A program made the position numbers and the translations under genes. The notes beneath the pieces were generated by a model. It was not told the origin of the DNA. It saw nothing but the letters and a program-made list of their open reading frames with translations, and searched no databases. DNA of 32,000 nt from Candidatus Paracaedimonas acanthamoebae (GTDB lineage: Bacteria > Pseudomonadota > Alphaproteobacteria > Caedimonadales > Caedimonadaceae): positions 720,001-752,000 of the forward strand of contig CP008936.1 in the NCBI GenBank assembly GCA_000743035.1, written 5' to 3'. This document shows, piece after piece, positions 9,555 through 32,000 of the stretch. The stretch's first letter is position 1, and the number at the start of each line of letters is the position of its first letter.

Positions 9555-9914
9555 TCAAGGCTTAAATTTTACATTATTTTTTAATATCTCAAAAATTGTA
9601 CCAAAATAATATTTGGGATTTTGTTCCTGCTGTTGTTTATAGGTATTTATTAATTTGCTTATTCTTTTTTCAAGAGTTTTATAATTTTTAAAATCAGTTT
9701 TATATTTTTCAAAAAATATCGCTAATTCAGTTGGATCTGGATAATCATTATGCTCATTATCATCCTTTATTTTGTTTAACCTTTTTGCAGGAGTTAGTAT
9801 TCTAGAAAACTTATCATCTTCTTTTTCTTCTTGGCTAGTAGCTAAACAGAAATTTTGAGACGCCAGTATAAAAATTAAAAAGAAACCGAAAGTAGGTACA
9901 TTTAATAAACTCAT
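9555..9914 (-). CDS. Small exported hypothetical protein
   Basis: AGGAGA lies 8 nt upstream of the internal ATG at 9912-9914, which is preferred to the track start at 9944. The leader is MSLLNVPTFGFFLIFILASQNFCLATSQEEKEDD. The rest is lysine-rich and no family is recognised. Confidence 0.55.
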   Translation of the reverse strand: MSLLNVPTFGFFLIFILASQNFCLATSQEEKEDDKFSRILTPAKRLNKIKDDNEHNDYPDPTELAIFFEKYKTDFKNYKTLEKRISKLINTYKQQQEQNPKYYFGTIFEILKNNVKFKP

Positions 9915-10413: not shown

Positions 10414-11880
10414 ATGCAATTCTTACGCCTTCTTTCTTTTGCATTGATGCTCGCTGCTCAAGGCATCATGCAGAATCCTTGCCTCGCCTCAGCTGATGAA
10501 GAAGAAACTGAACCTGCGAAGAAACGCCAAAGAAGAACCCGCGCTCCTTTACTTAAAGAGCTTTTGTTAGAAAGCCAGGAAGAGAAAAGTTTGCCTGATG
10601 AAGTATGGATGCATATTTTTGATTCATTAAGCTTTCGTGACCTTGGTAGAGTACGACAAGTATGCCGCCATTGGAATGCTCTTGGCCAAGATGAGTGGCT
10701 TTCTCTTCCTAAACAGATTGAAATTAAGCCTTTATCCATTTTATGGGAAAAGCTAGAAGGCGCCTCTGATAAGCACTATCAACAGTTTTTTTCTTTTCCG
10801 CACGCTCTTGAGAAAGTCTGCGCAGATCCAATTGTTCTTGAAGAAATACTTCAAACCCCTTCTTTCCTCCCTCTCTTCTTTCAAAGTAAGATTACAGCAG
10901 CAAGAATCTATGAAGCTTTATCGAGAGAGACATTAGGAGCTAAGCAACAAACAGCCTTAGAAGCTTATGCTGGAGTAGCTCCTATCTTCCCACCTGATAA
11001 AAGCTTGTTCTCCCAAGACTTTATAACCTTTGCACAAGCGCATGCCGCTCGGTATAAAGCCCTTTATCTGTTATCCTTATTTAAATTTCCAGATAGAAAC
11101 CCTATAATAGAATTATTCAGGCGAGCTAATAACGAGGTTATTGCAGAAGATAATTTTGCAATAAAGGATGAAGAGGAGGCGATCCTTCTTCCTAGAGCAC
11201 TGACCCACTTTCCTAATATTCCGCATGAAGAAGCATTCAATATTGCAGAGTTTTGCCATTCATGGGCTGAGAAAGCATCTAAGGATTTAAAAAGTGAATG
11301 GCTAAACTTGGCAATGATGTTCTGCCAAGAATCGGCCAGGCAAGGCGATAGGGACGCACTCTTCAAACTTAGTCTCTTCTTAGATGAATGTTATCAATTT
11401 AAAGAGGCAGAAATTATTTGGCTTCATCTTGCCAATCACGGAGATAAAGAGGCTCAATGTAATTTAGGGATACACTACGAAGCTCAAGGCGAGGAGGATA
11501 AAGCAGAGTTCTATTACCGCCAAGCTGCAGACCAAGGAAATATAGAAGCACAAATTTGTCTGGGGAGTCTTTTGGAACGCAAAGGAAACCCTGAAGAAGC
11601 TGAAAGCCACTATCGCTCTGCAGCTGAACAAGGAGATGCACTCGCCCAAAATAATCTAGGTCTCTTATTAGAAAAGAAGAATGACTTTGTCGGGGCCTTC
11701 AACAACTATGGAATAGCTGTAAATCAAGGGATTAATTTTGCTTGCCTCAATCTAGCTTATCTTCTTGAGCAACATCCTGAGGTTTTCTCAGGCTCCCAAG
11801 CAGAGAGAATCAACAAGATTATGCAACTTCGAAAACAAGGGGAAGAAAAATTTGAGGAATGGTCCCAAGCTCGAAGATAA
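10414..11880 (+). CDS. Exported F-box domain / Sel1-like repeat (SLR) protein, eukaryote-like effector candidate
   Basis: 488 aa. The leader is MQFLRLLSFALMLAAQGIMQNPCLASADEEE. The F-box consensus lies at aa 60-96 (LPDEVWMHIFDSLSFRDLGRVRQVCRHWNAL; nt 10591-10701). At least three or four Sel1 repeats lie at aa ~305-452 (GDKEAQCNLGIHYEAQG, AADQGNIEAQICLGSLLERKG, AAEQGDALAQNNLGLLLEKK). Confidence 0.88.
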   Translation: MQFLRLLSFALMLAAQGIMQNPCLASADEEETEPAKKRQRRTRAPLLKELLLESQEEKSLPDEVWMHIFDSLSFRDLGRVRQVCRHWNALGQDEWLSLPKQIEIKPLSILWEKLEGASDKHYQQFFSFPHALEKVCADPIVLEEILQTPSFLPLFFQSKITAARIYEALSRETLGAKQQTALEAYAGVAPIFPPDKSLFSQDFITFAQAHAARYKALYLLSLFKFPDRNPIIELFRRANNEVIAEDNFAIKDEEEAILLPRALTHFPNIPHEEAFNIAEFCHSWAEKASKDLKSEWLNLAMMFCQESARQGDRDALFKLSLFLDECYQFKEAEIIWLHLANHGDKEAQCNLGIHYEAQGEEDKAEFYYRQAADQGNIEAQICLGSLLERKGNPEEAESHYRSAAEQGDALAQNNLGLLLEKKNDFVGAFNNYGIAVNQGINFACLNLAYLLEQHPEVFSGSQAERINKIMQLRKQGEEKFEEWSQARR

Positions 11881-16026: not shown

Positions 16027-19000
16027 TTAAAATTTATGTCCTAATTTGAGAGAGATTTCGTGAGCTTTGTATTTTGCACTGAATTGAGCATCATAAGCTG
16101 CTGAGATGAAGAGTCCTGAGTTAGCTTTATAATCAAGGCTAAGTCCTGGAGAGAACTGATGCTGGGTTTTGTTGGAACCTGCGGCAAGGAAAGATCCAGG
16201 TTGGCCCACAAGGTTAGCGGTGATTTCCCCCTTCTTCAGCGGATGCTTATTCACATAAGAGAGCTTCACTTTTGCTGTGAGGAGGCCTTCTTCGAGTTTA
16301 TAGTGACGGTAGAAGTTAAGACCTGGTTCTGTCCGAAGGGAAGTATTTGTCTTGCTTCTGATATGAAGGTTAAGGGCGCCTGCATCTTTTTCTTGATAAC
16401 CTTTTTCATGAATGTGCACATAATCTTCACGGATGAATGGCACAACCTCGATGCCATTGATTAAAGTAAATCCATGCCCAATCTCAAGGCTTGGAGCTAA
16501 GACATAGCCGTTATGGCGACTGCGTGCTGTTCGATCAATAGTCGCAAAAGTCATGCGGCGACGGATATTATAACGGTTATAGGCTCCTGTTATTGAGGCA
16601 TTGATATAGAGCTTATTGTGGAACCAAGTACTATAGACACTGGCGAGATAATCTCTAATCCTTCCTTGAGAGACACCTCCGGTCCATTTGATGCGACTTT
16701 GATCATATCCAATGCTGGCACCGACAAAGAGATCAGGTTTGAACTTATAATCCACCCCAATTAAGGATCCGCCTACTCTATTGCGATAGCCTAGATCTCG
16801 GGCTGTTGATTTTTGTTTGGAGTAATTACCGAAGCCTTGGATCCAGATGCCGCCTTTAGGTCCCATCATCAGAGCATTGTCTTGCATTTGCTGCCCAATA
16901 TTGAGCGCCATGGAAGAGCCCCGTGCTTGTCGTCCATCGGCTTTCATTTGTCCAAAAGCTTGTTTGATATGATTCATGAGGGAGGTAGCTCTTTGGTTTT
17001 TCGTTGTGGTAAAGGCAGCGACGGCCACAGCAGAGGTTGCCATATCTCGCAGATAATGCATTCTAAACCCATTGATCTCATTGATGAGCGTTGCAGTCTC
17101 TTCAGTCTGAATCTGTAATAACTCGTCTGGAGAAATCTCTGAGAAAATATCTGTAATTCCATGTGCTTCTGGTCGTGAGTTAAAGATAGATATAATATTG
17201 CTTAAATCAGAACCTGGAACAGGTGAAAGATTATCAAAATAATGAGCTGAAGCTATATAGTTTGGATTATCGCTTACAGAACGGACGATCTCTTCAAAGA
17301 GAACATGCCCATCAAACTTTAGGAATACTTTATTGGGATCCATGATATAATCAGCAACCCATTTATAACGCACATGTGAACTTTGAATAGCGCCAAATTG
17401 ACCATCAATGAGATTATCAGAGCTTAAGACTTCAAAAGGAGGATGGTTTTCATAAGCATTGTTATCCCCTGGTGTCACCTGCACAGAAAGAATACTGTTA
17501 TTAAGATGGGCAGTTCCTTCAACATGAAGTTTATTGGATTGCTCAGAATTGACAGCAATTTGAGTAATACCTTGGGATGAAGGAAGATAATCTCCTCTTA
17601 TCGTAAATATTCCCACAGGATCACTTGGCGTTACAATACTATTGTTGACCACTGTTCCTACAGAGCTAGTTCCTGTTAAAGTAGCACCAGCATCTACAGT
17701 GACATTTCCAATAGAGCCATCAACAACAAGCGTTCCTCCTTTAACATGGGTGTCGCCTATGTATAAATTAGCCTTCGTGAGGGTCAAAGAACTACTTCCT
17801 GTTTTATCAAATCCTCCTGCCCCATTGATCATGCTAGCAATTGTTGTTGGGGAATCTGTTTGAAGAATGGCTCTCCCTCCTTGAAGTGTTATAGGATTCG
17901 TGAGGGTCAAAGGTGTTCCAATGTTTAAGGTGGTTTGATCATGAAGCGTGATAGGTCCTGAGCCTTGAGCTGTTAGAGAAGAGATACGAATGCCGCCTTC
18001 TTCAATAGTCAATCCTCCACTAAATGTATTGTTGCCTCTGAAGGTCAAGAAAGCAAGCCCACGCTTAACAACTTTACCCCCATTACCCTTAATCTGACCT
18101 GCAAAGGCTGATGGTTGAGCAGCGTTTAGCATATTCACAGTGAGAGTCTTATCGCCAAGGTCAATTTGGCTATTTGTAATCTGTGAGTTTGTTGAAAAGA
18201 TTGAAGCCACAGTTTGGTTTTGAGCGCTCATATCAAAGACAGAATCATTAGTCGTAAAAATAAGTGAGCTATTGGAAGGAAGAGTACTGCTAGCCTTCAT
18301 GGTAAGCTTAGCCTCATTAATTGTCCAAAGAGGCGTCTTAAGGTTCTCTCCTCCTAAAGTAAGATCCGCATTAAGAATAACTTGAGAGTTTACCCCACCT
18401 TCAAGAGTTCCATCAACGACAGAAGATCCATTCAGCATCAAGGATTGATTCCCCCATTTAAAGGAGGTATTTGCACTTCCTTGTAGAGAAGAAAGGATAA
18501 GATTATTCCCAGAAGCACTTGCATCAAAAGAGGCGTTTTCATCTGCAAGAATGATAGATGTTGTTGCAGCTAAGCTGGCCCCTTGTGTCAAAACAACTTT
18601 CCCGTTCTCATTAACCTGAAGGGTGCCTAGTGCACTATTGGCTCCTCCCAATGTCAATGTCGAGCTTCCATCTACAATCACACGGCCACCAGAACTACTG
18701 TTGAACACGCCCTTAAAAAGTGAATTTCCTTTTAAGGTAAGTTTATTGTTGCCTAGAATCACACGGCTATTGGTTTGGCCATTTAATTTTCTCAAGGTCA
18801 CAGGTGCAGCAAGGCTGATGTCAAAGGTGGTGCCTTGATCTCTAAGCGTTACATCACTATTGTTAGGAAGACCTCCACCTGTACCCAAGGCAAAAGTTGC
18901 GCTATCACAAAGTTCGATGCCCCCTGTTAAGAGATTTTGAGCCTTGCTTATGAGAGTCCCTGAGCCTTTGATAAGAAGTTTATTAGCGCCTTCTATAACA

Positions 19001-22000
19001 CCTGTTAGAGTGGAGAGGAAAGTTCTTGTATCAAAGCTAATTCCTTGATGAGGACCTGGGGCCGCTGCATTGAGTGTAAATTTATTCCCCACAGTTACAT
19101 TTGCGCCCCAGTAAAGGGTGGTGTTATCTGCCATGGCAACAGGGCCAGCGCCTAAAGCTGTATTTGTAGAAAAGGTAACAGCGGTATAACCATTTGGCAG
19201 TTCAAGTCCACCTGTAAAGGTATTTTGACCGCCTAAACTTAAATCATTTGCCACAATCAGTTTCCCGCCTCCACTGATTGAGCCATTGAGCGTTCCTAAA
19301 TACCCTCCTGGTTCCATCGTCACAACTCCATTAAGTGAGAAAGGGTTGCTTAAGGTTCCATCCGCTCCCCATGAAAGAGTTGTGTTGTTACCAAAAGTTG
19401 CTGCCCCTGTTCCAAGAGCGCCATTCTTAAAAATGGCTATGGTACTATTGGGAGCGAAATATGTTTCCCTACTATAGGTATTGGGAGATTGCTGAGTTGC
19501 ATTTCCTAGCCATATCTCGCCTGCCATAATAAGTTTTCCAGGGCCACTGATGACTCCAGCTAATCCCCCACTTGTTGTTGTTCCATCGAATGTAATGCCG
19601 ACAGGATTATTCGCAACTGTATTGAGGATAAACCCATTATTTAAAGTGTTGACGGATCCCCATTTAAGCATCGTCCCATCAGCCATCGTCACAGGTCCTG
19701 TCCCTAACGATGTAGAATTGTCAGAGATGGCAATAGTCCCCTTTTCCAGAGTGGTGCCACCGCTGTAAGTATTCTGACCAGAGACAAACCAAGTCCCAGT
19801 CCCTTGTTTTACAACTTTGCCACCTACCCCTTGAATCACACCCTCAAAAGTTGAGTCATTCCCTGTGCCAAAAGTTAAAGTATTGCCTCCAAGGTTAATG
19901 ATGCTGCTGGTGTCCCCCGTGAGATCACTCAAAACTTGAGACCCTAAACTCATATCAAAAGTAGACCCAATGCCGACAAGTGAGAGAGATTTGTTAGGAC
20001 CCACAAAAATATTTGGGAGGCCTGCTTTAAGGGTTGTCCCTGCTTGGACTGCAGTGCCTCCTTGATGAGACATAACACCCCCCAATGTTAAGATACTGCC
20101 GCCCTTAATAATGAGATTTGTGAGAGTGCCAACAGCTTGTGAGATGGCTCCGCTCAGTGTACTTGCATACCCTCCTGTATTGATTGTGACGGTATTTCCA
20201 TTTAAAGTCATTGGATTTGTAATGGTTGCAGGCGCCCCAAACTTTAATGTTGTGGCATTGGCCATCGTCACGGCACCTGTGCCAAGCGCGCCCGATTTAA
20301 AGAGGGTAACAGCTTTATTGGCGCTGATGTCTGTACCGCCAGAATAGGTGTTTGCTGGACTCCCTGCTTGGCCTAAGGTTAGATTATCAGAAATAAGGAG
20401 TTTACCAGCACCTAGAGTCGCATCTGAAATAGCCCCTTTTAAGGCTCCATTAAACCCATTAGTATTTGTAGTCACTGTGCCGCTTAGCTTAAAAGCATTC
20501 TCAAATACTGCATCTGCGCCCCATTTTAAGGTTGTTCCACTCCCCATTGTTACAGGACCTGTACCGAAGGATGTATTGTTTCTAACTTCAACCCCTCCTG
20601 AAGAAATGGTGGTTCCCCCAGAATATAAGTTCTGAGCGTTAAGCATAAGATATCCTATCCCTTTTTTGGTCAAAGAACCATTTCCAGAGATCACCCCACT
20701 CAATGTCACGGGATTATTACCTATATCAAAAATACCTCCTCCTTGATTAAGAGTAATAGGACGATTTAATGTCAAAGCAGGCCCATTGGTGAATTTTAGC
20801 ATTCCAGAGGTATCATTAAGCCCTGTATTTGTTCCTAAGGTAATAATCGCATCCGGTGCCGTAACAGGATGATAAGCCTTACCTAAATTACTATCACTGC
20901 TAATGGATATAGTTCCATTTTTAACTTCTGTGCCTCCCTCGTATATATTAGCACCATTAAGGACCAGCGTGCCTAATCCATTTTTGGTCAGAGGGACACT
21001 TCCATTAGGAGATGAAATTACATTATTGATGCTTTGAGTGACACCTTGGACAACAGAAAGAGTGATACCTTGAGAGCTTACGAAGTTAGGATTAAGCTCA
21101 ATATTATTGTTAAACTCAATTCCAGGCCCATTAAATAGCGTCGTTGATCCTGACAATCTTAGAGAGCCTGCCCCAGACCACTTACTGTTGGCATCTAAAC
21201 GGAGTAAGTCAAAGTTGAAAAAACGATCATTGTTTATAATTTCTCCAATATTGATGAACGTTTTTCTGTTTGAAATTGAGCTTGCGTCTATCGTTATTGT
21301 ACCGGTGTTAGTGAATTGATTGTTATTTTCCAATATGGTTGCGTACTCTAAAGTCATGGCACCTGAATTCGTAAGCTGAGTACTTAAGGTAATTAATTTA
21401 TCTGAAAATGTACCCTGTCCTGAGAGAATAGTTGTGCCATTTTGAGCAACTGAAGAATCAATAAACTCTAAAATACCTTGACTAGCGCTTGAAAAGTCGC
21501 CTGAGAAAGTCAACGTCTTTCCATTATTATCAATTGTACTAGAAGCCCCAAGAGAGATATCATTGTCAAGTGTGAGAACATTCTGATCTGCTTGGAGGGT
21601 TCCTCCTTCTAAACTAACCACCCCTGTGCCTAGAGCTGAATTATGTCTAACTTGAACCGTTCCTGCAGAAAGGGTGGTTCCGCCAGAGTAATCGTTATTC
21701 CCAGAAACACGCCAAGTGCCCTCCCCTTGTTTGACAATCTTACCATCTACTCCTTGAATCACACCCTCAAAAGTTGAGTCATTCCCTGCGTCTATATCCA
21801 GGGTAAGAGTTTTGTCTCCTAAATTAATCTCACTTCCGACATTGCCATCCAAGGAAGCAAGGGTTTGTGGTGCATCAGCCATATTGAAGATTGCCTTATT
21901 AGCCCCTGAACTGATAAGAGAAAGAGAACTTTCAGCTGCCAAAGAGCTGCCTGCTTCCATCTTCACTGTCACTGGATTTGCCGTGGCATCAGCTGTCAAA

Positions 22001-24579
22001 AGACCTGTATTTGTATTTTGTCCTCCTAGTGTTAGGTTATTCTTGGCGGTAATATTTCCTCCAAGCCCCGAGAAAATACCATCAAAGTTTGAAGGTTGGG
22101 TTAAAGTTAAGGTACGAGTATCTAGAAGAACTTGACTGGTATTTCCCCCTTGCAAACCTCCTAGAGACTGGTCAGCTTGCCTCATATCAAAAATAGTGTT
22201 CTGTCCTAAAAGATTGAGGTTACCCGACACGGCATTGGCAATACCTGCTTTAAACGTTGTATCATCCTGAACTTCAATCCCTCCTGAGTGGGAAGCAACA
22301 TTATTTAACGTTAGGACATTTCCTCCTTGAATAATGAGTTTCATCACACTGGCTCCAATCTGTGTGATAGCCCCCGATAAGATGCTGGCAAATCCTCCTG
22401 TATCAATCGTAGCTACCCCTGGATTGCCTGAGCTCCCTGAATCAAGCACCAAGGGATTGTTGATGACGAGGCCACCTATTCCAAACTGGAGTGCCGTATT
22501 ATTTGACAGCTTAATTGTTGAAGTTCCAAAGCTGGTGTTTGACCTTGCAGTTACGCTTCCTTCTTGAAAGAGAGAGTTGCCTCCATAAGCATTCGAATAT
22601 AAAGTTAAGTTCCCATTCCCCGCCTTAACAACGGAAGCATTAACTCCTCCTTCAATTGTTCCCTTATAATCTGAATCATCATCACTTTCTAAAGTGAGTG
22701 TTTTATCACTCCCAAGCTTAACCTTACTTGTTACTGCGGAGCCATTAAGATCTTTAACTGTTTGAGATTGATAGGATAAATCAAGAACTGAATTACTCGC
22801 GATTGAAATTGACGGTGCTTTGGTAAAAGGACCTTTTGTCGTTAATTGTGAATTTGCCTCAATCCCAATTCCTGTAAGATTAACATTTCCCTCAGTCGTA
22901 AGATCCCCCCATACATGCATTGTAGAGGCACCAGACTCTCCAATAGAACCTGTAAGAATGCCTTTATTTGTCACGTTATTGCTCACAGTATTAATATTAC
23001 CACGCGTACCGATAACAAAATTGTTTTGAAGCGTGGCATCGGCTTCAAGCGTCAGAATTGCATTAGATCGAAGCGTGACAGTATTCGTGCCCAAAGGTTT
23101 TGGATTGGATCCTATCATAACAGTGGCTTCGTCGACGTCGAGAGGACCAGAAAAGGCAGAATTATCAGCTGTTAGCTTAAGGATACCTTGGGATGGAGAG
23201 CTACTTGTTACATTTAACCCACCATTCCCGCTTAGAGGGCTACTGATTGTAAGGTTTTTTCCTGATTGAATATCAAAGGTGTTATTCTCAGCTAATTGTA
23301 AACTAGGAATATCTGCAGGACTAAAAGTCGCATCTTGATTAACGATAATAGTTCCATTATCGAGTTGAAATGCCCCTACCTTAAGAGCACCTCCATCAAG
23401 CCAAAGCTGCGCACCATCTTCAATAATAAAACTGTCGGCTTCGAGAGGTTGTCCCATCGTTGATGGTAAAGATAGCTGGCATAAAGGTGATATAAGCTTA
23501 AAGATACCAGAACCACCAATGGGATTATTATCATCATCTGTTGTCGAGACGCGAAGGCTTCTGCCATCACTGATCGTGTAATCACGATCAAGCGTAAGTT
23601 GTTGAAGGATAGACCTACCTGGTTGCGTCCAAGCCTCTGGGGCGAAAAACATGCGTATACGCCCACCGCTCCCTGTTTCTAGTGCATATAATTGTCCTGT
23701 GCTCTCATTTAATGCTAAAGCAATAGGACGATTAAGCTCACCTATAGGAGTCTGGTCTTTATATTGGTAATTTGGTGGATTAGTATCAGTAGCATAATAT
23801 TGGATATTGGATAATCCTTTGTCAAGAATCCACACTGGTCCAAAAGTATTTGTATTGAGAGTTACAATGCTAACTGGTTCAACTAAATTTCCATTAAGAT
23901 TTGAAAAATCAAAGGCATTCAAAGTTGTTGTATCTATGGCGCTAACTCTACCTTGATCAGTAACTTGATTCTTAATTGTTGTATAAAGAATGCCTTTTAA
24001 AGAATTAACACTAAATCCTGTTGCAATTTCATTAGCATTGAGAGGAATAGAAGCACTATTTGATGAACTTCCAACATTATAAACTTTTATTTCTGAATCT
24101 GGGGTTGTTAAGTAAATTGAGTTGGCTGTCCCATTGACGTTTGTACGAACTGTTATGTTGGTAGGTGTACTATAGGCGGTTGACGAAGTAGATAATAAGG
24201 ATCCATTTGAGAGAGCATATTCACTTATTCGGTAGTTAGTATCGGTTCCATTTGGAGTTCGCATGATCCATATATTGGGGCTACCATCCGATCTTTTACT
24301 TGTAGCTATCCCTAATGGCTTGGAATTGGGAGCACTAAAAAAAGAACTTTGACCAATTCCTGTAGACTTAAAAGAATAAACAGTGTTTGCTATCGTGTCG
24401 GAGACAAAAACACGTCCGGTGATAGGATCAACAGCAATGCCAGATGGCTGTTGAAAAGCATTGTTTGTCGCGAAGCTATGAATATAAATTGGACTCGTAG
24501 AGGCCGGGGAATTTATAAAACACAAAAGAAGAAGATAGATGAATCTTTTAAACAATAAGTTCTTTAGTAATTTTCTCAT
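16027..24579 (-). CDS. Giant autotransporter (type Va): signal peptide, NHL-like N-terminal region, PATR-repeat passenger, C-terminal beta-barrel
   Basis: 2850 aa. The leader is MRKLLKNLLFKRFIYLLLLCFINSPASTS. NHL-like units occur in aa ~30-320 (PSGIAVDPITGRVFVSDTIANTVYSF; RPIALALNESTGQLYALETGSGGRIRMF). At least ten autotransporter-associated beta-strand repeats are present (e.g. KQGEGTWRVSGNNDYSGGTTLSAGTV, KNGLGTLVLNGANIYEGGTEVKNGTI). The last ~275 aa (nt 16030-16856) form a typical autotransporter barrel (GGIWIQGFGNYSKQK...GVDYKF...ending HKF). Confidence 0.92.
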   Translation of the reverse strand: MRKLLKNLLFKRFIYLLLLCFINSPASTSPIYIHSFATNNAFQQPSGIAVDPITGRVFVSDTIANTVYSFKSTGIGQSSFFSAPNSKPLGIATSKRSDGSPNIWIMRTPNGTDTNYRISEYALSNGSLLSTSSTAYSTPTNITVRTNVNGTANSIYLTTPDSEIKVYNVGSSSNSASIPLNANEIATGFSVNSLKGILYTTIKNQVTDQGRVSAIDTTTLNAFDFSNLNGNLVEPVSIVTLNTNTFGPVWILDKGLSNIQYYATDTNPPNYQYKDQTPIGELNRPIALALNESTGQLYALETGSGGRIRMFFAPEAWTQPGRSILQQLTLDRDYTISDGRSLRVSTTDDDNNPIGGSGIFKLISPLCQLSLPSTMGQPLEADSFIIEDGAQLWLDGGALKVGAFQLDNGTIIVNQDATFSPADIPSLQLAENNTFDIQSGKNLTISSPLSGNGGLNVTSSSPSQGILKLTADNSAFSGPLDVDEATVMIGSNPKPLGTNTVTLRSNAILTLEADATLQNNFVIGTRGNINTVSNNVTNKGILTGSIGESGASTMHVWGDLTTEGNVNLTGIGIEANSQLTTKGPFTKAPSISIASNSVLDLSYQSQTVKDLNGSAVTSKVKLGSDKTLTLESDDDSDYKGTIEGGVNASVVKAGNGNLTLYSNAYGGNSLFQEGSVTARSNTSFGTSTIKLSNNTALQFGIGGLVINNPLVLDSGSSGNPGVATIDTGGFASILSGAITQIGASVMKLIIQGGNVLTLNNVASHSGGIEVQDDTTFKAGIANAVSGNLNLLGQNTIFDMRQADQSLGGLQGGNTSQVLLDTRTLTLTQPSNFDGIFSGLGGNITAKNNLTLGGQNTNTGLLTADATANPVTVKMEAGSSLAAESSLSLISSGANKAIFNMADAPQTLASLDGNVGSEINLGDKTLTLDIDAGNDSTFEGVIQGVDGKIVKQGEGTWRVSGNNDYSGGTTLSAGTVQVRHNSALGTGVVSLEGGTLQADQNVLTLDNDISLGASSTIDNNGKTLTFSGDFSSASQGILEFIDSSVAQNGTTILSGQGTFSDKLITLSTQLTNSGAMTLEYATILENNNQFTNTGTITIDASSISNRKTFINIGEIINNDRFFNFDLLRLDANSKWSGAGSLRLSGSTTLFNGPGIEFNNNIELNPNFVSSQGITLSVVQGVTQSINNVISSPNGSVPLTKNGLGTLVLNGANIYEGGTEVKNGTISISSDSNLGKAYHPVTAPDAIITLGTNTGLNDTSGMLKFTNGPALTLNRPITLNQGGGIFDIGNNPVTLSGVISGNGSLTKKGIGYLMLNAQNLYSGGTTISSGGVEVRNNTSFGTGPVTMGSGTTLKWGADAVFENAFKLSGTVTTNTNGFNGALKGAISDATLGAGKLLISDNLTLGQAGSPANTYSGGTDISANKAVTLFKSGALGTGAVTMANATTLKFGAPATITNPMTLNGNTVTINTGGYASTLSGAISQAVGTLTNLIIKGGSILTLGGVMSHQGGTAVQAGTTLKAGLPNIFVGPNKSLSLVGIGSTFDMSLGSQVLSDLTGDTSSIINLGGNTLTFGTGNDSTFEGVIQGVGGKVVKQGTGTWFVSGQNTYSGGTTLEKGTIAISDNSTSLGTGPVTMADGTMLKWGSVNTLNNGFILNTVANNPVGITFDGTTTSGGLAGVISGPGKLIMAGEIWLGNATQQSPNTYSRETYFAPNSTIAIFKNGALGTGAATFGNNTTLSWGADGTLSNPFSLNGVVTMEPGGYLGTLNGSISGGGKLIVANDLSLGGQNTFTGGLELPNGYTAVTFSTNTALGAGPVAMADNTTLYWGANVTVGNKFTLNAAAPGPHQGISFDTRTFLSTLTGVIEGANKLLIKGSGTLISKAQNLLTGGIELCDSATFALGTGGGLPNNSDVTLRDQGTTFDISLAAPVTLRKLNGQTNSRVILGNNKLTLKGNSLFKGVFNSSSGGRVIVDGSSTLTLGGANSALGTLQVNENGKVVLTQGASLAATTSIILADENASFDASASGNNLILSSLQGSANTSFKWGNQSLMLNGSSVVDGTLEGGVNSQVILNADLTLGGENLKTPLWTINEAKLTMKASSTLPSNSSLIFTTNDSVFDMSAQNQTVASIFSTNSQITNSQIDLGDKTLTVNMLNAAQPSAFAGQIKGNGGKVVKRGLAFLTFRGNNTFSGGLTIEEGGIRISSLTAQGSGPITLHDQTTLNIGTPLTLTNPITLQGGRAILQTDSPTTIASMINGAGGFDKTGSSSLTLTKANLYIGDTHVKGGTLVVDGSIGNVTVDAGATLTGTSSVGTVVNNSIVTPSDPVGIFTIRGDYLPSSQGITQIAVNSEQSNKLHVEGTAHLNNSILSVQVTPGDNNAYENHPPFEVLSSDNLIDGQFGAIQSSHVRYKWVADYIMDPNKVFLKFDGHVLFEEIVRSVSDNPNYIASAHYFDNLSPVPGSDLSNIISIFNSRPEAHGITDIFSEISPDELLQIQTEETATLINEINGFRMHYLRDMATSAVAVAAFTTTKNQRATSLMNHIKQAFGQMKADGRQARGSSMALNIGQQMQDNALMMGPKGGIWIQGFGNYSKQKSTARDLGYRNRVGGSLIGVDYKFKPDLFVGASIGYDQSRIKWTGGVSQGRIRDYLASVYSTWFHNKLYINASITGAYNRYNIRRRMTFATIDRTARSRHNGYVLAPSLEIGHGFTLINGIEVVPFIREDYVHIHEKGYQEKDAGALNLHIRSKTNTSLRTEPGLNFYRHYKLEEGLLTAKVKLSYVNKHPLKKGEITANLVGQPGSFLAAGSNKTQHQFSPGLSLDYKANSGLFISAAYDAQFSAKYKAHEISLKLGHKF

Positions 24580-24812: not shown

Positions 24813-24856
24813 AGAACCAGTGAGATTAGGGGGAGAAAAAGGTGTCACTGGTTCTT
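24813..24856 (+). other. Hairpin H1: 12-bp stem with a 20-nt G-rich loop containing TAGGGGGAG
   Basis: AAGAACCAGTGA (24813-24824) pairs perfectly with TCACTGGTTCTT (24845-24856). The loop is GATTAGGGGGAGAAAAGGTG. It is related to H2 and to a hairpin inside the R repeats. Confidence 0.6.
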
Positions 24857-26139: not shown

Positions 26140-26397
26140 ATGATGAAGGACAGCCAAGAGAACCTTTTTTTCAAATTACATCCATTGAAGGATTACATCA
26201 AGCAGCTGTCCAAGGGTATAGTGCATTTAACAGAAGAATATGTTAAGGATAAAGGTAACCAACTTTTTCCTATATTGCCAGAATTACAAGGCCCAGAAAT
26301 AGATTTGTATTATATATTTCCTCAGCGGTTTAAGAAGTCGAAGAGTGTAATGACTTTATATGAGTTTCTGTTAACTAAATTTAATAGTACTGAGTGA
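26140..26397 (+). pseudogene. C-terminal remnant of a LysR-family paralogue
   Basis: The 85-aa ORF aligns by eye to the last ~85 residues of the neighbouring LysR proteins (ILPELQGPEIDLYYIFPQRFKKSKSVMTLYEFL vs VLPDITAPTVEIYYIYSTRMEESKKIHAFETFI). There is no HTH or N-terminal part upstream. Confidence 0.65.
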
Positions 26398-26600
26398 AGC
26401 AACAGTTATGCATAGTACAAGATAAATGGGCTGATATTTATTTGCTAATCTCCTCATAATGCATATCCTTTCAGAGTACATGCCAACAAGTACTTCTTAA
26501 CTTCTTACCTAACGTTTAAAGAATATTCAATATCTATTATGCATTAAAGTCATAACGTCATGAGAGATGGTAATAGCGTTAAATTAGTGAAGGTAGGGGG

Positions 26601-26651
26601 AAGAAGAATCGGTGGGTAATAGGGGGAGAAAAAGGGTAACCGATTCTTCTT
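26601..26651 (+). other. Hairpin H2: 13-bp stem with a 25-nt G-rich loop containing TAATAGGGGGAG
   Basis: AAGAAGAATCGGT (26601-26613) pairs perfectly with ACCGATTCTTCTT (26639-26651). The loop is GGGTAATAGGGGGAGAAAAAGGGTA. A further TAGGGGGA lies at 26594-26601 abutting the stem. Confidence 0.6.
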
Positions 26652-26908
26652 TGTTGGTCCTAAGTTGCTTTTGGGCAACCTCAGAATACTTTAACCATAT
26701 TAAATGCTTTAGGAGATGACTACTTCTCATTTGATATATGAGGTTTGCATATCTGAATACCTCACGCATTATAGCCCATGTTTTATAATTAAATAGAATT
26801 TTTCCTTTTTAAATCAAAATGTAATCCTATCGACTATTGATATGTCCTATAAAATCCCTATATTTTTAAAATAAACAGAAAAATAGTGAAGTGGAGGCAC
26901 GATGGATC

Positions 26909-27172
26909 TTGCGCTAGGAAGTTAAATACTTTCTGGCACGTTTGGATTTTTGAAAATCAATGCTTAAAGCTAAGTTGCATTCCTAAAAGAATATCCAGAG
27001 GCCCGAAGGCCACTGGATTAAGTTAGGGAGGGAAGACTAAATGAGGAGCATTTATCTCCTCAACATCTGGTGCTTAATAGGGGAGCACCAAATTTCTTTT
27101 CTCAAGTCCCCATAAGAGGGTGAGAGAGCCTAAATAGCTCAAGGCTGCTAAGCTCTCTCTGGGGAGGGACTT
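26909..27172 (+). repeat. R1: copy 1 of a sharply bounded, hairpin-dense ~250-264 bp repeat (candidate structured RNA or small mobile element)
   Basis: It starts TTGCGCTAGGAA and ends GGGGAGGGACTT, as copy 2 does. The core 26986-27129 is identical to 28483-28626 except for one base. GC-rich hairpins include CCAGaGGCCcgaaGGCCaCTGG, GAGGAGcatttatCTCCTC, GGTGCTtaataggggAGCACC and AGTCCC...GAGAGAGC-[22 nt]-GCTCTCTC...GGGACT. It also has a 13-nt insertion (26921-26933) relative to copy 2. Confidence 0.85.
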
Positions 27173-27366
27173 TGAACTTTGTTGTATAAACATTTTATGA
27201 TTCATGCTTCTGTTCAATGTATTTTATTTCCCTATTTTGCCTTTTAACTCATTAGGGCCTTTGTATTTAAAGATAATATAAATTATTTACATTATATAAA
27301 ACAATTATTATGTTTCTATATAAACTATATAAAAAATATATAGTAATTGTAAATTACGGAGAACCT

Positions 27367-28260
27367 ATGAATTTAGAGAGGCTGAAAGTATTTTATTTTA
27401 TTGCTAAAAATGGAAGTTTTACTAAGGCTGCTGCAGCTTTAAATATAACACAGCCTCCTCTAACGGTTGCTATTAAATTGCTAGAACAAGAACTGCAAGC
27501 TAAATTATTTGAGAGGTCTTCTAAAGGGGTTACTCTTACTTCTGAAGGGGAAAAGCTTTTTGAATTTGCAAAAAAAGTTATCGAGGAAGCTGAAATAACT
27601 AAAAAATTAATAAAAGATAATGGAGAAGAACCACAAGGGGAATTGAAAATTGTATCTACTCCTTATCTAGCCTCAGTTTGGATACCTCACCATCTTTCTT
27701 CATTTTTTAATAAATATCCTAAAATACACCCCTGTATTACAGGAACATTTGAAGATATTACAGTGAATAGAGCAGATATTGCTATTCGCACCTTTATCCC
27801 TCATCATCCGCACCTTGTTCAAAAGCATTTTTTATCTCTTCATCACAGGTTATGGGCAAGTCAAGATTATCTTAATAAGTATGGGGTACCTCGATGCGCG
27901 GAAGATCTTGATGATCATCAACTGATAACATTCGATAATAAATCATATGATATGTATGGTAGTGCTCATTGGATTTTGAATGTCGGTGCCCATAAGAAGC
28001 CACGCAAGCCTTATATAACATGTAATTCAGTAGAAGGGCTTATAAACATAGCTGAAAAAGGATTTGGTATAATCGAAACCTCAGAAGAATATGTTGACCT
28101 AAAAGCGCATAATCTTGTAAAGGTCCTGCCTGATATAACTGCCCCTACCGTTGAAATTTATTACATTTATTCAACGCGTATGGAAGAATCCAAAAAAATA
28201 CATGCTTTTGAAACTTTTATTTATGAAAATTTCAGTAAGTTCGTAAAAAGTTCTACCTAA
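27367..28260 (+). CDS. LysR-family transcriptional regulator (paralogue 3)
   Basis: GGAG lies 6 nt upstream of the ATG at 27367, preferred to the track start at 27310. The wHTH is MNLERLKVFYFIAKNGSFTKAAAALNITQPPLTVAIKLLEQELQAKLFERSSKG. A full substrate-binding domain is present. Confidence 0.9.
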   Translation: MNLERLKVFYFIAKNGSFTKAAAALNITQPPLTVAIKLLEQELQAKLFERSSKGVTLTSEGEKLFEFAKKVIEEAEITKKLIKDNGEEPQGELKIVSTPYLASVWIPHHLSSFFNKYPKIHPCITGTFEDITVNRADIAIRTFIPHHPHLVQKHFLSLHHRLWASQDYLNKYGVPRCAEDLDDHQLITFDNKSYDMYGSAHWILNVGAHKKPRKPYITCNSVEGLINIAEKGFGIIETSEEYVDLKAHNLVKVLPDITAPTVEIYYIYSTRMEESKKIHAFETFIYENFSKFVKSST

Positions 28261-28418
28261 TAAAACTAACGCTTGGAATTTCTTACAATAGCTATCATAA
28301 AACCAGGGTAAATATTGCCACATGTTTCAACTTTTAATTCTTTCATAGAGATCTATCCTTAATTTTTTTCTTATTAGCTTAAAATTTTAAATAAATAAAG
28401 TTTAATTTAAAAATTATT

Positions 28419-28669
28419 TTGCGCTAGGAATGGCACATGTGAATTTTTGAAAATCAATGCTTAAAGCTAAGTTACATTCCTGAAAGAATATCCAGAGGCC
28501 CGAAGGCCACTGGATTAAGTTAGGGAGGGAAGACTAAATGAGGAGCATTTATCTCCTCAACATCTGGTGCTTAATAGGGGGGCACCAAATTTCTTTTCTC
28601 AAGTCCCCATAAGAGGGTGAGAGAGCTGAGAAATCTTAAAGTTCCCAGACTCTCTCTGGGGAGGGACTT
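28419..28669 (+). repeat. R2: copy 2 of the structured repeat, same orientation as R1
   Basis: It has the same ends and core as R1. The apical segment 28627-28649 (TGAGAAATCTTAAAGTTCCCAGA) is replaced relative to R1 27130-27151 (CTAAATAGCTCAAGGCTGCTAA), while the flanking stem GAGAGAG/CTCTCTC is retained. Confidence 0.85.
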
Positions 28670-28997
28670 AGTTAATAAGAGTTTTAATTTCAAATTCCCC
28701 TTTATGCATAAGTCTCAGGCTTAACTCCCTTATTATTTTTATAAGTAAAGAAGGCTTATTACCATTAAAGTACCGCAATAGTAATTACATGTCAATAAAA
28801 AATTATCAATTATTACAACGACTTATAATGTTCCAATAAAGAATTATTTACTAAAAAAAGTTCTTTACAGGTATTATTAAAAAAATATGAAAAAGGTTAA
28901 AATTGGAAATAATGCTCAGATGCCTCAGCATTTATTGCTAATTAAGCGTAAATAGGGCATTTTAGCTGGTTAAATAGTTGGGAAAGCAGGGCTAGCT

Positions 28998-29949
28998 TTA
29001 ACTTAAATACTTAGGGTATACTCTCATTCCAGCATTATCTGGGTGCTTGCTTTCTTTTTCTAGGGCTTCTACAAGATATTCTCCTAAAGCTGTTATCCGT
29101 TTTTGATTTTCCAATTTTTTTGGATATACGTAGTGAATATCTATTATGGGGCCTTCTATGTTTGGAAGGATTTCAATAAGTTTAGAGCCCTTAAGCACTT
29201 CATGATACTTTGACAATGAAACTATACCCATTCCGTCCTGTGCAAGCTTAGTGAGACCCAAGGCAGAATTAACTTGGATAAAAGGCATCCGTGTTTGGCC
29301 AGGTTTACACCCTAAGTTTAAATGCCAATCTACATTCCCAAAAGTTATCTTCTTGTCTTTTGAAAATGCTAGCAATCGATGGTTATCTAAGTCTTCAGGT
29401 TTCCGGGGGATGCCATATTCTGCTAAATATTCTTTGCTCGCGTATAAGCCAAGAGGATAAGATAAAAGATATAAATGTACCAATTCTGGATTTTTAGGGA
29501 CAAAAGGTCTTATAGCAACATCAGCTTCTCGCGCTTGTAAATCCAAACTTTCATCGGTACCTACAATGCTTATTTTCATATTAGGGTATTTTTTTAGAAA
29601 CCCTTTCATGTATTTAACGAGCCACACAGAAGCATGCCCTGTTGTCGTTGCAATTTTTAAATTTCCACTAGCTTCCTCGCTATTTGTAGGTATAAAAGTT
29701 TCAATAACCCGAGCTTCATATATTATTTTTCTTACAGAATATATTATTTATCTTACAGAATCTAAAAGCTGCTCACCTTCCAGTGTAAGCTTGATACTTC
29801 CATAATGCTTTTCTAAAACCTTAAATTTTCTATATCTTTTATCTGGCGACTAATTTATGGGGAGTAACACCAATTTGCTCTGCTGCAGCTAGATAACTTC
29901 CAGCTTTTACAATTTGATAAAAAAGAACTAGCTGATTTATATCGATCAA
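28998..29949 (-). pseudogene. LysR-family regulator (paralogue 4) with a disrupted N-terminal HTH region
   Basis: The C-terminal 209 codons are open (28998-29627). Upstream, the wHTH is recognisable but broken: (TTG)IDINQLVLFYQIVKAGSYLAAAEQIGVTP, then a frame change to ISRQIKDIENL, then another to VLEKHYGSIKLTLEGEQLLDSVR, then an in-frame TAA created inside a 21-bp tandem duplication (29720-29761). Confidence 0.8.
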
Positions 29950-30100
29950 CGATTTTATCTCTATAATTAATTGCCCTTAATAGCGTATTAAGCTAAGGGT
30001 TTATTGATGTTTTTTAAAGATAAAAAATTTTCATTGCTAAAAAATGATTTTTAAGTTTATTGCTGCTTAACTGGACAAAATGCATAGGGGGATTTAATTA

Positions 30101-32000
30101 ATGCGGTCTATTAAAGTTTTAGCACTACTCATTTCAATTGTTTCTTTTCAACCACTCCAAGCAAGTTCTTCGACACCTCAACAAAATTCTTTAGAATCTT
30201 CTTTGATCGTAAAGTCGGAACCTTCTTCAAAAGAATCATCAGGCTTGTGGGGACAAACAAAAAAATTCATTTCTTTGTGGTTTTCTTCATTTAGATCCTC
30301 TTCTTCCAGCCCAAAAAACCTTTTGGAGCATACAGAAAATCCGAATTGGTGGGCTGCTTCTGAAAAGGATGACCAACCTTGGGCAAAAGAATGGAGTAAA
30401 TTGGTTGGACATGTGGCAGAAGAAAACGCCAAGCAAACAAGAATACTTTTAACGCAAATGGTGTATCGAAAAGGTGAGTTAGAACAAAGCTCGGACGAAT
30501 ATTATCAAGAACTTGCCGAATCTTTCAAAAAAACGCCTGACTTTATTAAAGGGCAAGATATAAATCTTATCAGTAAGCTTGGAAGTACAGGTTTAGGAAA
30601 AAGATTAATTTCCTTAGTAAATAGATCAATAAACTATTTAGAAGATCAACATACAGCAGAAGGAAGATCAGCTCTTATTGAGTATACTCGTCTTCTGTCT
30701 GATTTCTACCTTAGTATTGAAGCAGAAGGCATAGATGATGATCATTTTGATCAAGATTTATTTCAACAAGGTTATGATTATAAAAATGTATTAGTTAAGA
30801 TTAGTAAACTTAAAAGGCATCCAGGAAACCTTGCTTCCCTTAAAAAGCTCATTAAGGATCTTTATATCAAACTTGATGGCGGTAGATTAAGTGAGCTCTC
30901 TCATGATACATTGAGTTCTCTAGGAATAGAATTTGGTCAACCTCACAGAAGATCAAGCTGGCTTTCAAGTCAGAAAGTAGGCACAGGGCTTTTGTTCTTA
31001 GTTGTTTCCAGTGGGATGATTACCGCCGCTGCTGCCGCAAGGCCTCCGCTTTTAGATGCTTTCTGCTCCACAAATGAATTCAATTATGGGACTTGTGAGA
31101 CATCATTTAGTACGCCGATTGGATTTGACACCGAAATCGCTAGCCTTAAAAGCAATTCTTTTTTTCAAGATATTATTACGAATACCATTACTCAGACAAG
31201 TCGCTCCAGTAGCATATCTGACACACTTGATAGGCTTAGTTCTATAGGCACTCAATTTTATGGAGAAATTATTACCGCAAGAACAGGCTCTTTTTCGGGT
31301 GGGAATGTTACTTCAACTATGTATTTTGACATTCCACCCTATTTAGGGATGAGAGATGCCCCTATATCAAGCACTCAGTATGATCGCATTACTTTTAATA
31401 TGACAGCCATGAGTGATACAACAATGCAAACCATCAACTCTTACACACGTACAGGCCCGATGGGACCTTCTTACTATGGACAAATCCCAAATAGCGAGCG
31501 GATGATTCTAGCGATCACCGATGTCAACCAAACCTGGCCGATCTATGGGGTTGTGATAGATCGTCCTTCTGGCGGAGTACCAACTATTATAAGAGAGGGA
31601 ATTATCACATCAACTGTACAGGCCGTCTATCCTGACTCTCTTTCAATAACCCCCGTGAATAATGTGAATCCGAACGGTCTCCTTCCGGTTGAAAGCGTTG
31701 ATAGCTTTGTAAGCAGCCTTTATAGTGGACAAGTAGCAGGACCAGATGGTTTAAATCCCCGTCCTATTGCTCAATATTTAGAGGATATTGGTTTTTCAAC
31801 TTCAAGCTCCTTTCTTGCAGCCAAAAATTGCCTAGAAAGCCCCGGGGTAAGCCCTTTGGCCTGTAGCTCTCAGTTTGCTCAAAACTCTGGTTTTACCACG
31901 GCATTATATGTTTATGCGACACAACCTAATTCGGTTGTCACTCTCTCCCGTAATCTTTTGCAGGGGACGAATTACACCGAAGGAACCTATCAAGCTGGCA
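30101..32000 (+). CDS. Large exported/membrane hypothetical protein, 5' part only (open to the window edge; not in the supplied ORF track)
   Basis: The ATG at 30101 is preceded by TAGGGGGA at an 8-nt spacing. By my hand translation there are 633 codons with no stop to position 32000. The leader is MRSIKVLALLISIVSFQPLQASS. An internal hydrophobic segment is GTGLLFLVVSSGMITAAAAA. The gene is divergent from the LysR pseudogene. No family recognised. Confidence 0.75.
   Translation, partial: MRSIKVLALLISIVSFQPLQASSSTPQQNSLESSLIVKSEPSSKESSGLWGQTKKFISLWFSSFRSSSSSPKNLLEHTENPNWWAASEKDDQPWAKEWSKLVGHVAEENAKQTRILLTQMVYRKGELEQSSDEYYQELAESFKKTPDFIKGQDINLISKLGSTGLGKRLISLVNRSINYLEDQHTAEGRSALIEYTRLLSDFYLSIEAEGIDDDHFDQDLFQQGYDYKNVLVKISKLKRHPGNLASLKKLIKDLYIKLDGGRLSELSHDTLSSLGIEFGQPHRRSSWLSSQKVGTGLLFLVVSSGMITAAAAARPPLLDAFCSTNEFNYGTCETSFSTPIGFDTEIASLKSNSFFQDIITNTITQTSRSSSISDTLDRLSSIGTQFYGEIITARTGSFSGGNVTSTMYFDIPPYLGMRDAPISSTQYDRITFNMTAMSDTTMQTINSYTRTGPMGPSYYGQIPNSERMILAITDVNQTWPIYGVVIDRPSGGVPTIIREGIITSTVQAVYPDSLSITPVNNVNPNGLLPVESVDSFVSSLYSGQVAGPDGLNPRPIAQYLEDIGFSTSSSFLAAKNCLESPGVSPLACSSQFAQNSGFTTALYVYATQPNSVVTLSRNLLQGTNYTEGTYQAG

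Follow-up and report, generated by a model that had tools for sequence, protein, structure and literature searches.

The oxyS gene of the oxyR/oxyS pair has a small regulatory RNA (sRNA) as its product and lies divergent from the gene of a LysR-type activator. In the same manner, gcvB is transcribed divergently from gcvA, the gene of its LysR-type activator (PMC1557403). In Alphaproteobacteria, the LysR-type protein VtlR/LsrB activates the AbcR sRNAs together with genes for small hypothetical proteins (PMC7486931). The AbcR RNAs carry two target-binding motifs, M1 (CUCCCA) and M2 (GUUCCC), one in or near a hairpin and the other single-stranded between hairpins (PMC5461406). The CcsR or cuckoo RNAs are present in multiple copies, expose CCUCCUCCC in anti-Shine-Dalgarno loops, and are linked to the gene of a small DUF1127 protein (PMC8034643). 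The subject of this study is a pair of repeats, R1 and R2, that stand beside LysR genes in a stretch of 32,000 nucleotides (nt) of contig CP008936.1 (positions 720,001 to 752,000), referred to as the window. Its source is Candidatus Paracaedimonas acanthamoebae, which lives in amoebae as an alphaproteobacterial endosymbiont of the Holosporales. To our knowledge, hardly anything has been charted of the regulatory RNAs that Holosporales and related obligate endosymbionts possess.

A preliminary description of the window had offered three explanations for the repeats: a structured sRNA, or else a leader acting in cis, with a link to the LysR paralogues, a type-I-toxin-like cassette, or a non-autonomous mobile element with a specificity tip. 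From sequence comparison and analogy with the systems above, we propose that R1 and R2 may be sibling sRNA genes on the minus strand, members of a lineage-specific, LysR-linked family with C-rich motifs that would be controlled by a LysR-type regulator. We give this proposal a probability of about one half.

The repeat pair and its relatives

R1 (26909-27172) and R2 (28419-28669), both taken here on the minus strand, are direct repeats 1497 nt apart, one on each side of an intact LysR gene, LysR2 (27367-28260, plus strand). The first account of the pair as two direct copies flanking this gene holds in its particulars. The 144-nt core (26986-27129 in R1) has a sole difference between the copies (A27084 in R1, G28581 in R2), as was claimed. 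The tip of the long hairpin called H4 below is indeed swapped (27130-27151, 22 nt, in R1; 28627-28649, 23 nt, in R2), and a 13-nt indel is present in the variable left part. A 34-nt probe from the core has two exact matches in the sequence, with none predicted from shuffles, and neither BLAST nor nhmmer finds a third copy in the 32-kb window. The unit had also been called hairpin-dense and GC-richer than its surroundings. Its GC content is 41-45% against 22-33% in the flanks, and on the two strands it folds far more stably than shuffled sequences do (z -5.2 and -5.1).

Conservation was followed in a set of fetched contigs with orthologous LysR genes, of which L001, L006, L007 and L008 belong to the Caedibacter sp. 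38-128 lineage. In L004, where the LysR protein is 65% identical, two homologous copies, L004a (9693-9838) and L004b (11306-11389), flank the orthologue as in the window; they are 78% identical to each other. The Caedibacter sp. 38-128 lineage has one copy, in the R2 position. Judged from these alignments, related copies hold the same positions by orthologous LysR genes in two other Paracaedibacteraceae lineages, which brings the total to three taxa. The core common to them is ~115 nt long and reaches from hairpin H1 to just past hairpin H3. Its identity between the window and L004 is 88.7%; the coding sequence of the LysR gene beside it reaches 69.8%, and the spacer on its left side cannot be aligned. 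Across species, homology stops at the U tract that follows H1 on the minus strand and the next ~75-130 nt are unconserved, which explains the variable 5' ~75 nt noticed earlier in R1.

Beyond these lineages the collections scanned gave no match. A degenerate 31-mer, scanned against genome and metagenome collections, matched the Caedibacter sp. 38-128 lineage only, with a single match in the related genome. No matches came from a 22-mer scan of the genome collection, from the 31-mer scan of viral contigs, or from a BLAST search of plasmids with the repeat. Nor is the element covered by a known RNA family. Rfam 15 gave no match in the whole window at the gathering threshold. At E<=10, three matches were obtained in 26800-28800, none of them on the conserved core (26984-27172), and a weak match to a long non-coding RNA (E 7.2) overlaps R1 in its variable left part only. 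Four related loci searched at E<=5 yielded nothing relevant, and ARAGORN found no tRNA or transfer-messenger RNA. The earlier statement that no Rfam-type family is recognisable therefore stands, since the search places nothing on the core.

Anatomy and strand of the putative RNA

On the minus strand, the long form of the element (R1, R2 and L004a) presents, in order, motif 1, H4, H3, H2, motif 2 and H1, and the conserved functional part of R1 would be ~26984-27172. The two motifs, UCCCUCCCC and UCCCUCCCU, are C-rich and resemble anti-Shine-Dalgarno (anti-SD) sequences. Motif 1 (UCCCUCCCC, 27161-27169; longer form AAAGUCCCUCCCC) is the 5' arm of H4 (27104-27172; R2 28601-28669). The outer and inner stems of this long hairpin are conserved in R1, R2 and L004a, and its base coincides with the right end that the three copies have in common, GGGGAGGGACTT; H4 is absent from L004b and from the L001-type copies. 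Its unconserved tip is made of three unrelated sequences in the three copies, with the continuity of the hairpin kept in each, which we take to mean that its structure is constrained and its sequence free. A guide or target role for the 22-23 apical nucleotides, proposed at the outset, was dropped, as their matches in the window and in all related loci extend to no more than 12 nt.

H3 (27068-27090; R2 28565-28587) is formed by GGUGC/GCACC and holds the single R1/R2 core difference, at 27084. H2 (27042-27062; R2 28539-28559) pairs UGAGGAG with CUCCUCA and shows a compensatory change from U-A to C-G in L001. Motif 2 lies between H2 and H1 (27025-27037; R2 28522-28534) and consists of GUCUUCCCUCCCU followed by AACUUAAU; it is the putative anti-SD-like seed. 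Its segment CUUCCCUCCCUAAC is unpaired in minus-strand folds of single sequences and in the consensus fold, and is partly paired in an isolated 86-nt fragment. H1 (26993-27018; R2 28490-28515) is a GC-rich hairpin with a stem of 10-11 base pairs (bp) on the minus strand and a C(UUCG)G loop, which is UUUG in two copies. After it comes AUAUUCUUUU, at plus coordinates 26984-26992. Every copy has AUAUUCUUUU, AUUCUUCUUUU or AUUUUGCUUU after H1 on this strand, against AUUAAGUUAGGG on the plus strand, and the U tract is kept in L004a, L004b and L001. H1 and its U tract look like an intrinsic terminator and would be the 3' end of the RNA. A long-range plus-strand helix around H2 and H3 (GAGGGAAGA/UCUUUUCUC) was set aside; it occurs in R1 and R2 and is not conserved in L004a or L001.

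A putative promoter/operator block (27285-27319) separates R1 from LysR2 and is conserved in L004, L015 and L009. It contains promoter-like hexamers in both directions, TTTACA-N17-TATGTT toward LysR2 (plus strand) and TAGAAA-N16-TATAAT, with a perfect -10, toward R1 (minus strand, TATAAT at ~27291-27296). From the right end of R1 to the start of LysR2 the distance is 195 nt. On the minus-strand reading, R1 has the layout of a divergent sRNA gene, placed on the opposite strand and sharing a promoter region with a LysR gene; R2 does not have it. The same layout is found in L004, L015 and L009. In the last two, where the LysR protein is ~60% identical, the block is followed on the minus strand by short forms, with AAAGCCUCCCUGU and then UUCCCCCCUAAAA or UCCCUCCCCCUAAAA, and these finish with a canonical terminator of six or more U. 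Since this order of promoter, motifs and terminator makes sense on the minus strand only, it supports reading the element in that direction. The long form of this short L015/L009 unit seems to be present in R1, R2 and L004a. An exposed C-rich motif together with a 3' Rho-independent terminator is likewise found only if the minus strand is the one transcribed.

On this basis a mechanism can be proposed. Transcription of R1 would start in the short intergenic block that it shares back to back with the divergent LysR2, pass motif 1 in the 5' arm of H4, then H3, H2 and the single-stranded motif 2, and end where the U tract follows the GC-rich UUCG hairpin H1. If the locus works as gcvA/gcvB, oxyR/oxyS and VtlR/AbcR do, synthesis of the RNA would be under the control of the adjacent LysR protein, bound to the promoter region between the two divergent genes. 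Translation of target mRNAs would then be repressed through base pairing between their G-rich ribosome-binding regions and the exposed anti-SD-like motifs, with a neighbouring giant autotransporter gene as one candidate target. Pairing of motif 2 with the initiation region of this gene (GCUAACAGGGAGCGGG...AUG) is predicted at -21.3 kcal/mol, a value that 0 of 60 shuffles reach, the complementarity being of the generic anti-SD/SD kind. With the initiation regions of LysR2 or of a small open reading frame (ORF) described below, motif 2 pairs no better than shuffles.

R1 and R2 are not the only C-rich elements of the locus. E2 (26603-26649, minus strand) is a 13-bp hairpin with the minus-strand loop UUUUUCUCCCCCUAUUAC; it lies upstream of the remnant of a further LysR gene, LysR-A, and is conserved in L002 (in two copies), L004 and L001. 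E3 (24813-24855, minus strand) is a 12-bp hairpin with the loop UUUUUCUCCCCCUAAUC followed by UUUUAAAUU (UUUU), is conserved in L001, and is located between LysR1 (plus strand) and the autotransporter gene (minus strand). Both have stems of 12-13 bp and big loops with UUUUUCUCCCCCUA(A/U)U, and each has its place upstream of a LysR paralogue read from the other strand. A C-rich motif in or beside a hairpin stands in this arrangement at all the LysR paralogues examined (E2, E3, R1). The minus strand of the window has nine C-rich tracts, eight of them inside the 4-kb LysR array, and the plus strand has 13, none of them there. Of the explanations first offered, the evidence thus favours the structured RNA tied to the LysR paralogues, amended in three respects: its likely strand is minus, it would be a divergent partner instead of a leader, and it belongs with C-rich-motif elements that lie upstream of every LysR paralogue in the array. 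ORFs have been called or listed over such elements in L004 (9763-9912, minus strand, 49 amino acids), L002 (6173-6340, plus strand, 55 amino acids) and the window (28571-28693, minus strand, 40 amino acids); they are probably spurious calls that overlie RNA or hairpin sequence.

The autotransporter gene (16027-24579, minus strand) encodes 2850 amino acids with PATR repeats and is divergent from LysR1. Its ribosome-binding region is unusually G-rich (ACAGGGAGCGGG). The counterpart in L002 reads UUAGGGGGGAAU, and is complementary to the C-rich motifs.

The LysR array and competing explanations

The sharp ends of R1 and R2 had been taken to delimit a discrete unit, and for R1 this does not hold. 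Positions 26540-26912 can be aligned, base for base, with the first 11 nt of LysR genes that are intact in L002, L004 and L001, together with the region upstream of them. R1 starts at that 11-nt remnant of a LysR-A-type gene start, ATGGATCTTGC (26902-26912, plus strand, with its upstream region at 26540-26901), which overlaps the first 4 nt of the repeat (TTGC); the gene itself is deleted. By this alignment, the left edge of R1 is a deletion or rearrangement junction and no element boundary. In L004 the LysR-A counterpart is intact and is followed by the small ORF, an AT-rich block and copy L004a, an order from which it follows that the deletion in the lineage of the window took the gene body, the small ORF and the AT-rich block. 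What L004a and L004b have in common includes the AT-rich block and ~100 nt left of the core, so the repeated unit there is larger than the element as first defined.

In the window, the AT-rich block (TTAAAATTTTAAATAAATAnAGTTTAATTTAAAAAT, 28379-28418) is immediately left of R2, between the small ORF and the element. It is conserved across taxa and is found in L004 at 9545-9590 (left of L004a) and 11155-11200 (left of L004b), in L002 at 7400-7450 (left of the second E2 copy), in L001 at ~6520-6560, and in L015 at ~2880-2920 (after the small ORF). Its conservation exceeds what is expected of neutral intergenic DNA, and on the minus strand it has promoter-like hexamers, TTTAAA-N16-TAAAAT, facing the small ORF. 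This ORF, of 23-31 amino acids, occurs directly downstream of, and convergent with, the LysR subfamily in six lineages and is for that reason probably a real micropeptide gene. Its sites are 28266-28346 on the minus strand of the window, ~10880-10960 in L004, 6389-6490 in L001, 7221-7301 in L002, ~2790-2860 in L015 and ~2270-2345 in L017. The window copy (26 amino acids) reads MKELKVETCGNIYPGFMIAIVRNSKR, and the family has the consensus MKKLxxExxGNIYPG/AFxxxIxK, a normal SD sequence and no match in Pfam.

The LysR paralogues of the array are only ~40% identical to each other in amino-acid sequence, and the array is plainly made of old tandem LysR modules that have been duplicated and are decaying. 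A C-terminal LysR fragment (26140-26397, plus strand), a pseudogene, has no Pfam match and is clearly similar to the C-terminus of LysR2; the truncated LysR3 (28998-29627, minus strand) retains the substrate-binding domain only. Beyond the LysR fragments, ~2.4 kb (29600-32000) contain no ORF longer than 84 amino acids, and in the degraded region upstream of LysR3 a 21-nt unit, ATATATTATTTTTCTTACAGA, is tandemly duplicated (29718-29759, two copies, 95% identical). Since R1 and R2 are 98-99% identical within an array whose LysR paralogues share ~40%, their near-identity indicates recent gene conversion or re-duplication inside the old modules. The H4 tip possibly escaped this homogenisation because a long heterology blocks or ends conversion tracts.

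In amino-acid sequence LysR2 matches IM40_03890 of Candidatus Paracaedimonas acanthamoebae with 100% identity, and an F-box/TPR protein encoded in the window and the 2850-amino-acid autotransporter agree with this origin. No curated subfamily threshold, including those for GcvA and OxyR, is reached by the LysR proteins, and their best match in the PDB is an unnamed LysR protein. A near-palindrome, TGAGGTTTGCATATCTGAATACCTCA, is present at 26739-26764 upstream of the LysR-A-type start, and L002 has a perfect 26-nt palindrome, TGAGGTATGCATATATGCATACCTCA, at ~6155-6180; the site is a likely operator of that paralogue. Farther away, the window encodes a 488-amino-acid protein with an F-box and TPR/Sel1 repeats (10414-11880, plus strand), a eukaryote-like domain combination typical of amoeba symbiont effectors. 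It also holds a fragment of an IS110/IS116/IS902-family transposase (4322-4720, minus strand) in which 132 amino acids, the C-terminal domain only, are left, probably from a decayed insertion sequence (IS).

The toxin-like cassette of the first description found no support. An ORF inside the repeat, on the plus strand behind an SD-like GGGAGGG, has 24 amino acids in R1, 12 in L004a and 17 in L004b. In the L001-type copy ACG replaces its ATG, and this U-to-C change is offset by an A-to-G change across stem H2, the sole compensatory pair in the family. A coding role was rejected because neither length nor start is conserved and the loss of the start codon is structurally compensated. The element pairs no better than shuffles do with the start region of the nearby 26-amino-acid ORF, and it was discarded as an antitoxin of this ORF, the complementarity not exceeding chance. 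A match to ohsC in L003 is weak (E 3.7) and at chance level.

The mobile element with a specificity tip fared no better. As the preliminary description had noted, the unit has no terminal inverted repeats of the kind seen in miniature inverted-repeat transposable elements (MITEs), its ends being TTGCGCTAGGAA and, as the reverse complement of the right end, AAGTCCCTCCCC; no target-site duplication is present in the flanks of R1 and R2. With two copies in the window, synteny across three taxa, a left end that is a deletion scar, a single match to the pattern in a related genome, no match in viral or plasmid sequences and a tip without matches longer than 12 nt, a MITE or other non-autonomous element was rejected. 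An IS110 bridge RNA or an IS200-605 omega RNA was dismissed in turn, as the only transposase-like ORF is the IS110 fragment 22 kb away, which has no copy of the repeat beside it. An integron attC site, a CRISPR or a retron does not fit two copies spaced 1497 nt apart, and the ORFs scanned contain no integrase, Cas or reverse transcriptase domain.

Several points weigh against R1 and R2 being minus-strand sRNA genes. With one compensatory pair among five distinct sequences, which come from three taxa, the family offers negligible support from covariation, and the prediction of the autotransporter as a target rests on generic anti-SD/SD complementarity. The distance from TATAAT to the element varies, from ~30 nt in L004 to ~110 nt in the window. 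On the right side of R2 there is no recognisable copy of the promoter block and no divergent LysR gene, the neighbour being the truncated LysR on the same strand; expression of R2 would therefore need another promoter or read-through from the truncated LysR3. The strand of the RNA, its transcription start and its 3' end are all read from sequence features. Stem asymmetry is neutral as to strand (5 G-U pairs and 10 mismatches on the plus strand, 6 and 9 on the minus strand), a terminator-like score is also obtained on the plus strand for H3 with the AAAUUUCUUUU after it, and the AT-rich block could hold a plus-strand promoter.

The last two of these features would suit an RNA transcribed rightward from the AT-rich block (at R1, from the leftover LysR-A promoter) and ending at H3 or H4 on the plus strand, which might serve as an sRNA with a G-rich motif, as an upstream leader of LysR2, or as an RNA coding for a tiny peptide. 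The best-scoring promoter-like site of the region, TTGATA-N16-TATATT (26837-26864, plus strand), is located just left of R1, and the SD-like GGGAGGG is strong and stands 8 nt before an ATG. In this direction the difference at 27084 between R1 and R2, seen also in L004a, is the change from a U-A pair to a U-G wobble originally described; on the minus strand that description fails, the change giving a C-A mismatch. However, the promoter left of R1 is that of the deleted LysR-A gene and is adjacent only through the deletion, a conserved promoter of LysR2 itself is located downstream of the element, and the ORF is unconserved (12 amino acids in L004a, no start codon in L001), its start change being structurally compensated. 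A plus-strand transcript would also begin with 75-130 unconserved nt, and in the L009 and L015 short forms it would run through the terminator first and the motifs after. We hold this direction to be quite improbable. An unlikely alternative that keeps the minus strand is a cis-regulatory leader or attenuator, in which the RNA and H1 form the 5' leader of the gene that follows, be it the 26-amino-acid ORF after R2 (ancestrally also after R1) or the autotransporter after E3, and are coupled to it by regulated read-through of H1 or by processing of a 5' untranslated region (UTR) as in some CcsR loci. Such a gene lies within 150-300 nt in most contexts (28266-28346 after R2; L004, L001 and L002; the autotransporter after E3), and the CcsR RNAs of S. 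meliloti seem to originate in the 5' UTR of a small-protein mRNA (PMC8034643). Yet no gene lies downstream of the L009 short form on the minus strand, the promoter-like hexamers of the strongly conserved AT-rich block between H1 and the small ORF suggest that this ORF has a promoter of its own, the 75-130 nt after H1 are unconserved between taxa, and pairing between the element and the initiation region of the small ORF does not rise above shuffles.

Lastly, the repeats might be a feature of the DNA with no function as RNA, either the leftover of a gene-converted duplication, whose palindromes would be protein-binding sites at most, or a MITE-like element with a variable tip. An array built of duplicated and decaying LysR modules (the fragment at 26140-26397, the LysR-A remnant and the truncated LysR3) is the setting in which such leftovers would arise, the 98-99% identity of the repeats indicates homogenisation at the DNA level, and neutral strand asymmetry is what a DNA palindrome would show. 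Neutral leftovers, though, would not out-conserve adjacent coding sequence across species, nor would they keep their hairpins through compensatory change or maintain hairpin continuity across three unrelated tips. The mobile version also meets the missing inverted repeats and target duplications, the synteny, the near absence of matches elsewhere, and the lack of a nearby transposase. We regard either version as very doubtful. For sibling sRNAs on the minus strand, a bolder extension is conceivable and is offered as speculation: the LysR regulator, the divergent C-rich sRNA and the gene of the 26-amino-acid peptide would form an undescribed three-part module, multiplied into paralogous sets, in which the H4 tip gives each sibling its specificity through a kissing loop or a protein partner, and parallel circuits control surface proteins such as the 2850-amino-acid autotransporter.

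Comparison with known systems

If R1 and R2 are indeed sRNA genes, they would define a candidate family with long and short forms, accompanied by the hairpin variants E2 and E3. The adjacent LysR paralogue would be the hypothesised regulator, and G-rich ribosome-binding sites such as that of the giant autotransporter a candidate class of targets. With no Rfam family covering it, the element is a candidate for an undescribed small regulatory RNA, though not one that is mechanistically unprecedented. For annotation this would mean that the hairpin repeats of related contigs, and the spurious calls of ORFs of 40-85 amino acids over them, should be treated as RNA genes and not as mobile DNA or proteins.

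Short, GC-richer, hairpin-rich repeats in the AT-rich genome of an intracellular alphaproteobacterium recall MITEs, the Rickettsia palindromic elements and repetitive extragenic palindromic (REP) sequences. Unlike these, R1 and R2 lack inverted repeats and target duplications, number two in 32 kb, are syntenic, have a scar as one boundary and have no matches elsewhere. In our judgement the resemblance to gcvA/gcvB, VtlR/AbcR and CcsR is functional and architectural only, and membership in any of these families is unsupported. As with CcsR, several sibling copies occur per locus in an alphaproteobacterial host, the gene of a very small protein is close by on the same strand, and C-rich anti-SD motifs are placed in hairpin loops (E2, E3) or beside hairpins. 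In contrast to CcsR, the motif here is UCCCUCCCU or UCUCCCCCUAA instead of CCUCCUCCC, R1 and R2 do not present their motifs in a pair of simple hairpin loops, the small ORF falls outside DUF1127, LysR genes stand between the copies, which thus alternate with them instead of following one another in a single transcript, and Rfam gives no match.

AbcR1 and AbcR2 (alpha-r15) are also sibling RNAs of alphaproteobacterial hosts with two short C-rich motifs, for which the counterparts here are CCUCCCUG or UCCCUCCCC, and (G)UUCCCCCC or CUUCCCUCCCU. They differ in that no Rfam alpha-r family matches the element even at E<=10, and in that the long form here is ~190-300 nt long with four hairpins. The small ORF associated with it, of 26 amino acids and without a Pfam family, also sets it apart from the VtlR system, and the LysR proteins resemble VtlR/LsrB by arrangement. 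With GcvB and OxyS the element has no similarity in sequence or by Rfam, and its seed is C-rich where that of GcvB is G/U-rich. The arrangement is here multiplied in an array of paralogues, with LysR regulation a conjecture from position. What the locus shares with gcvA/gcvB and oxyR/oxyS is the architecture itself, a LysR gene and a terminator-ended non-coding unit standing back to back around a short shared promoter/operator. Should the minus-strand RNAs be real, the alphaproteobacterial theme of a LysR-type transcriptional regulator, C-rich sRNAs and a small protein, as in VtlR/AbcR and CcaF1/CcsR, would extend to a reduced intracellular genome.

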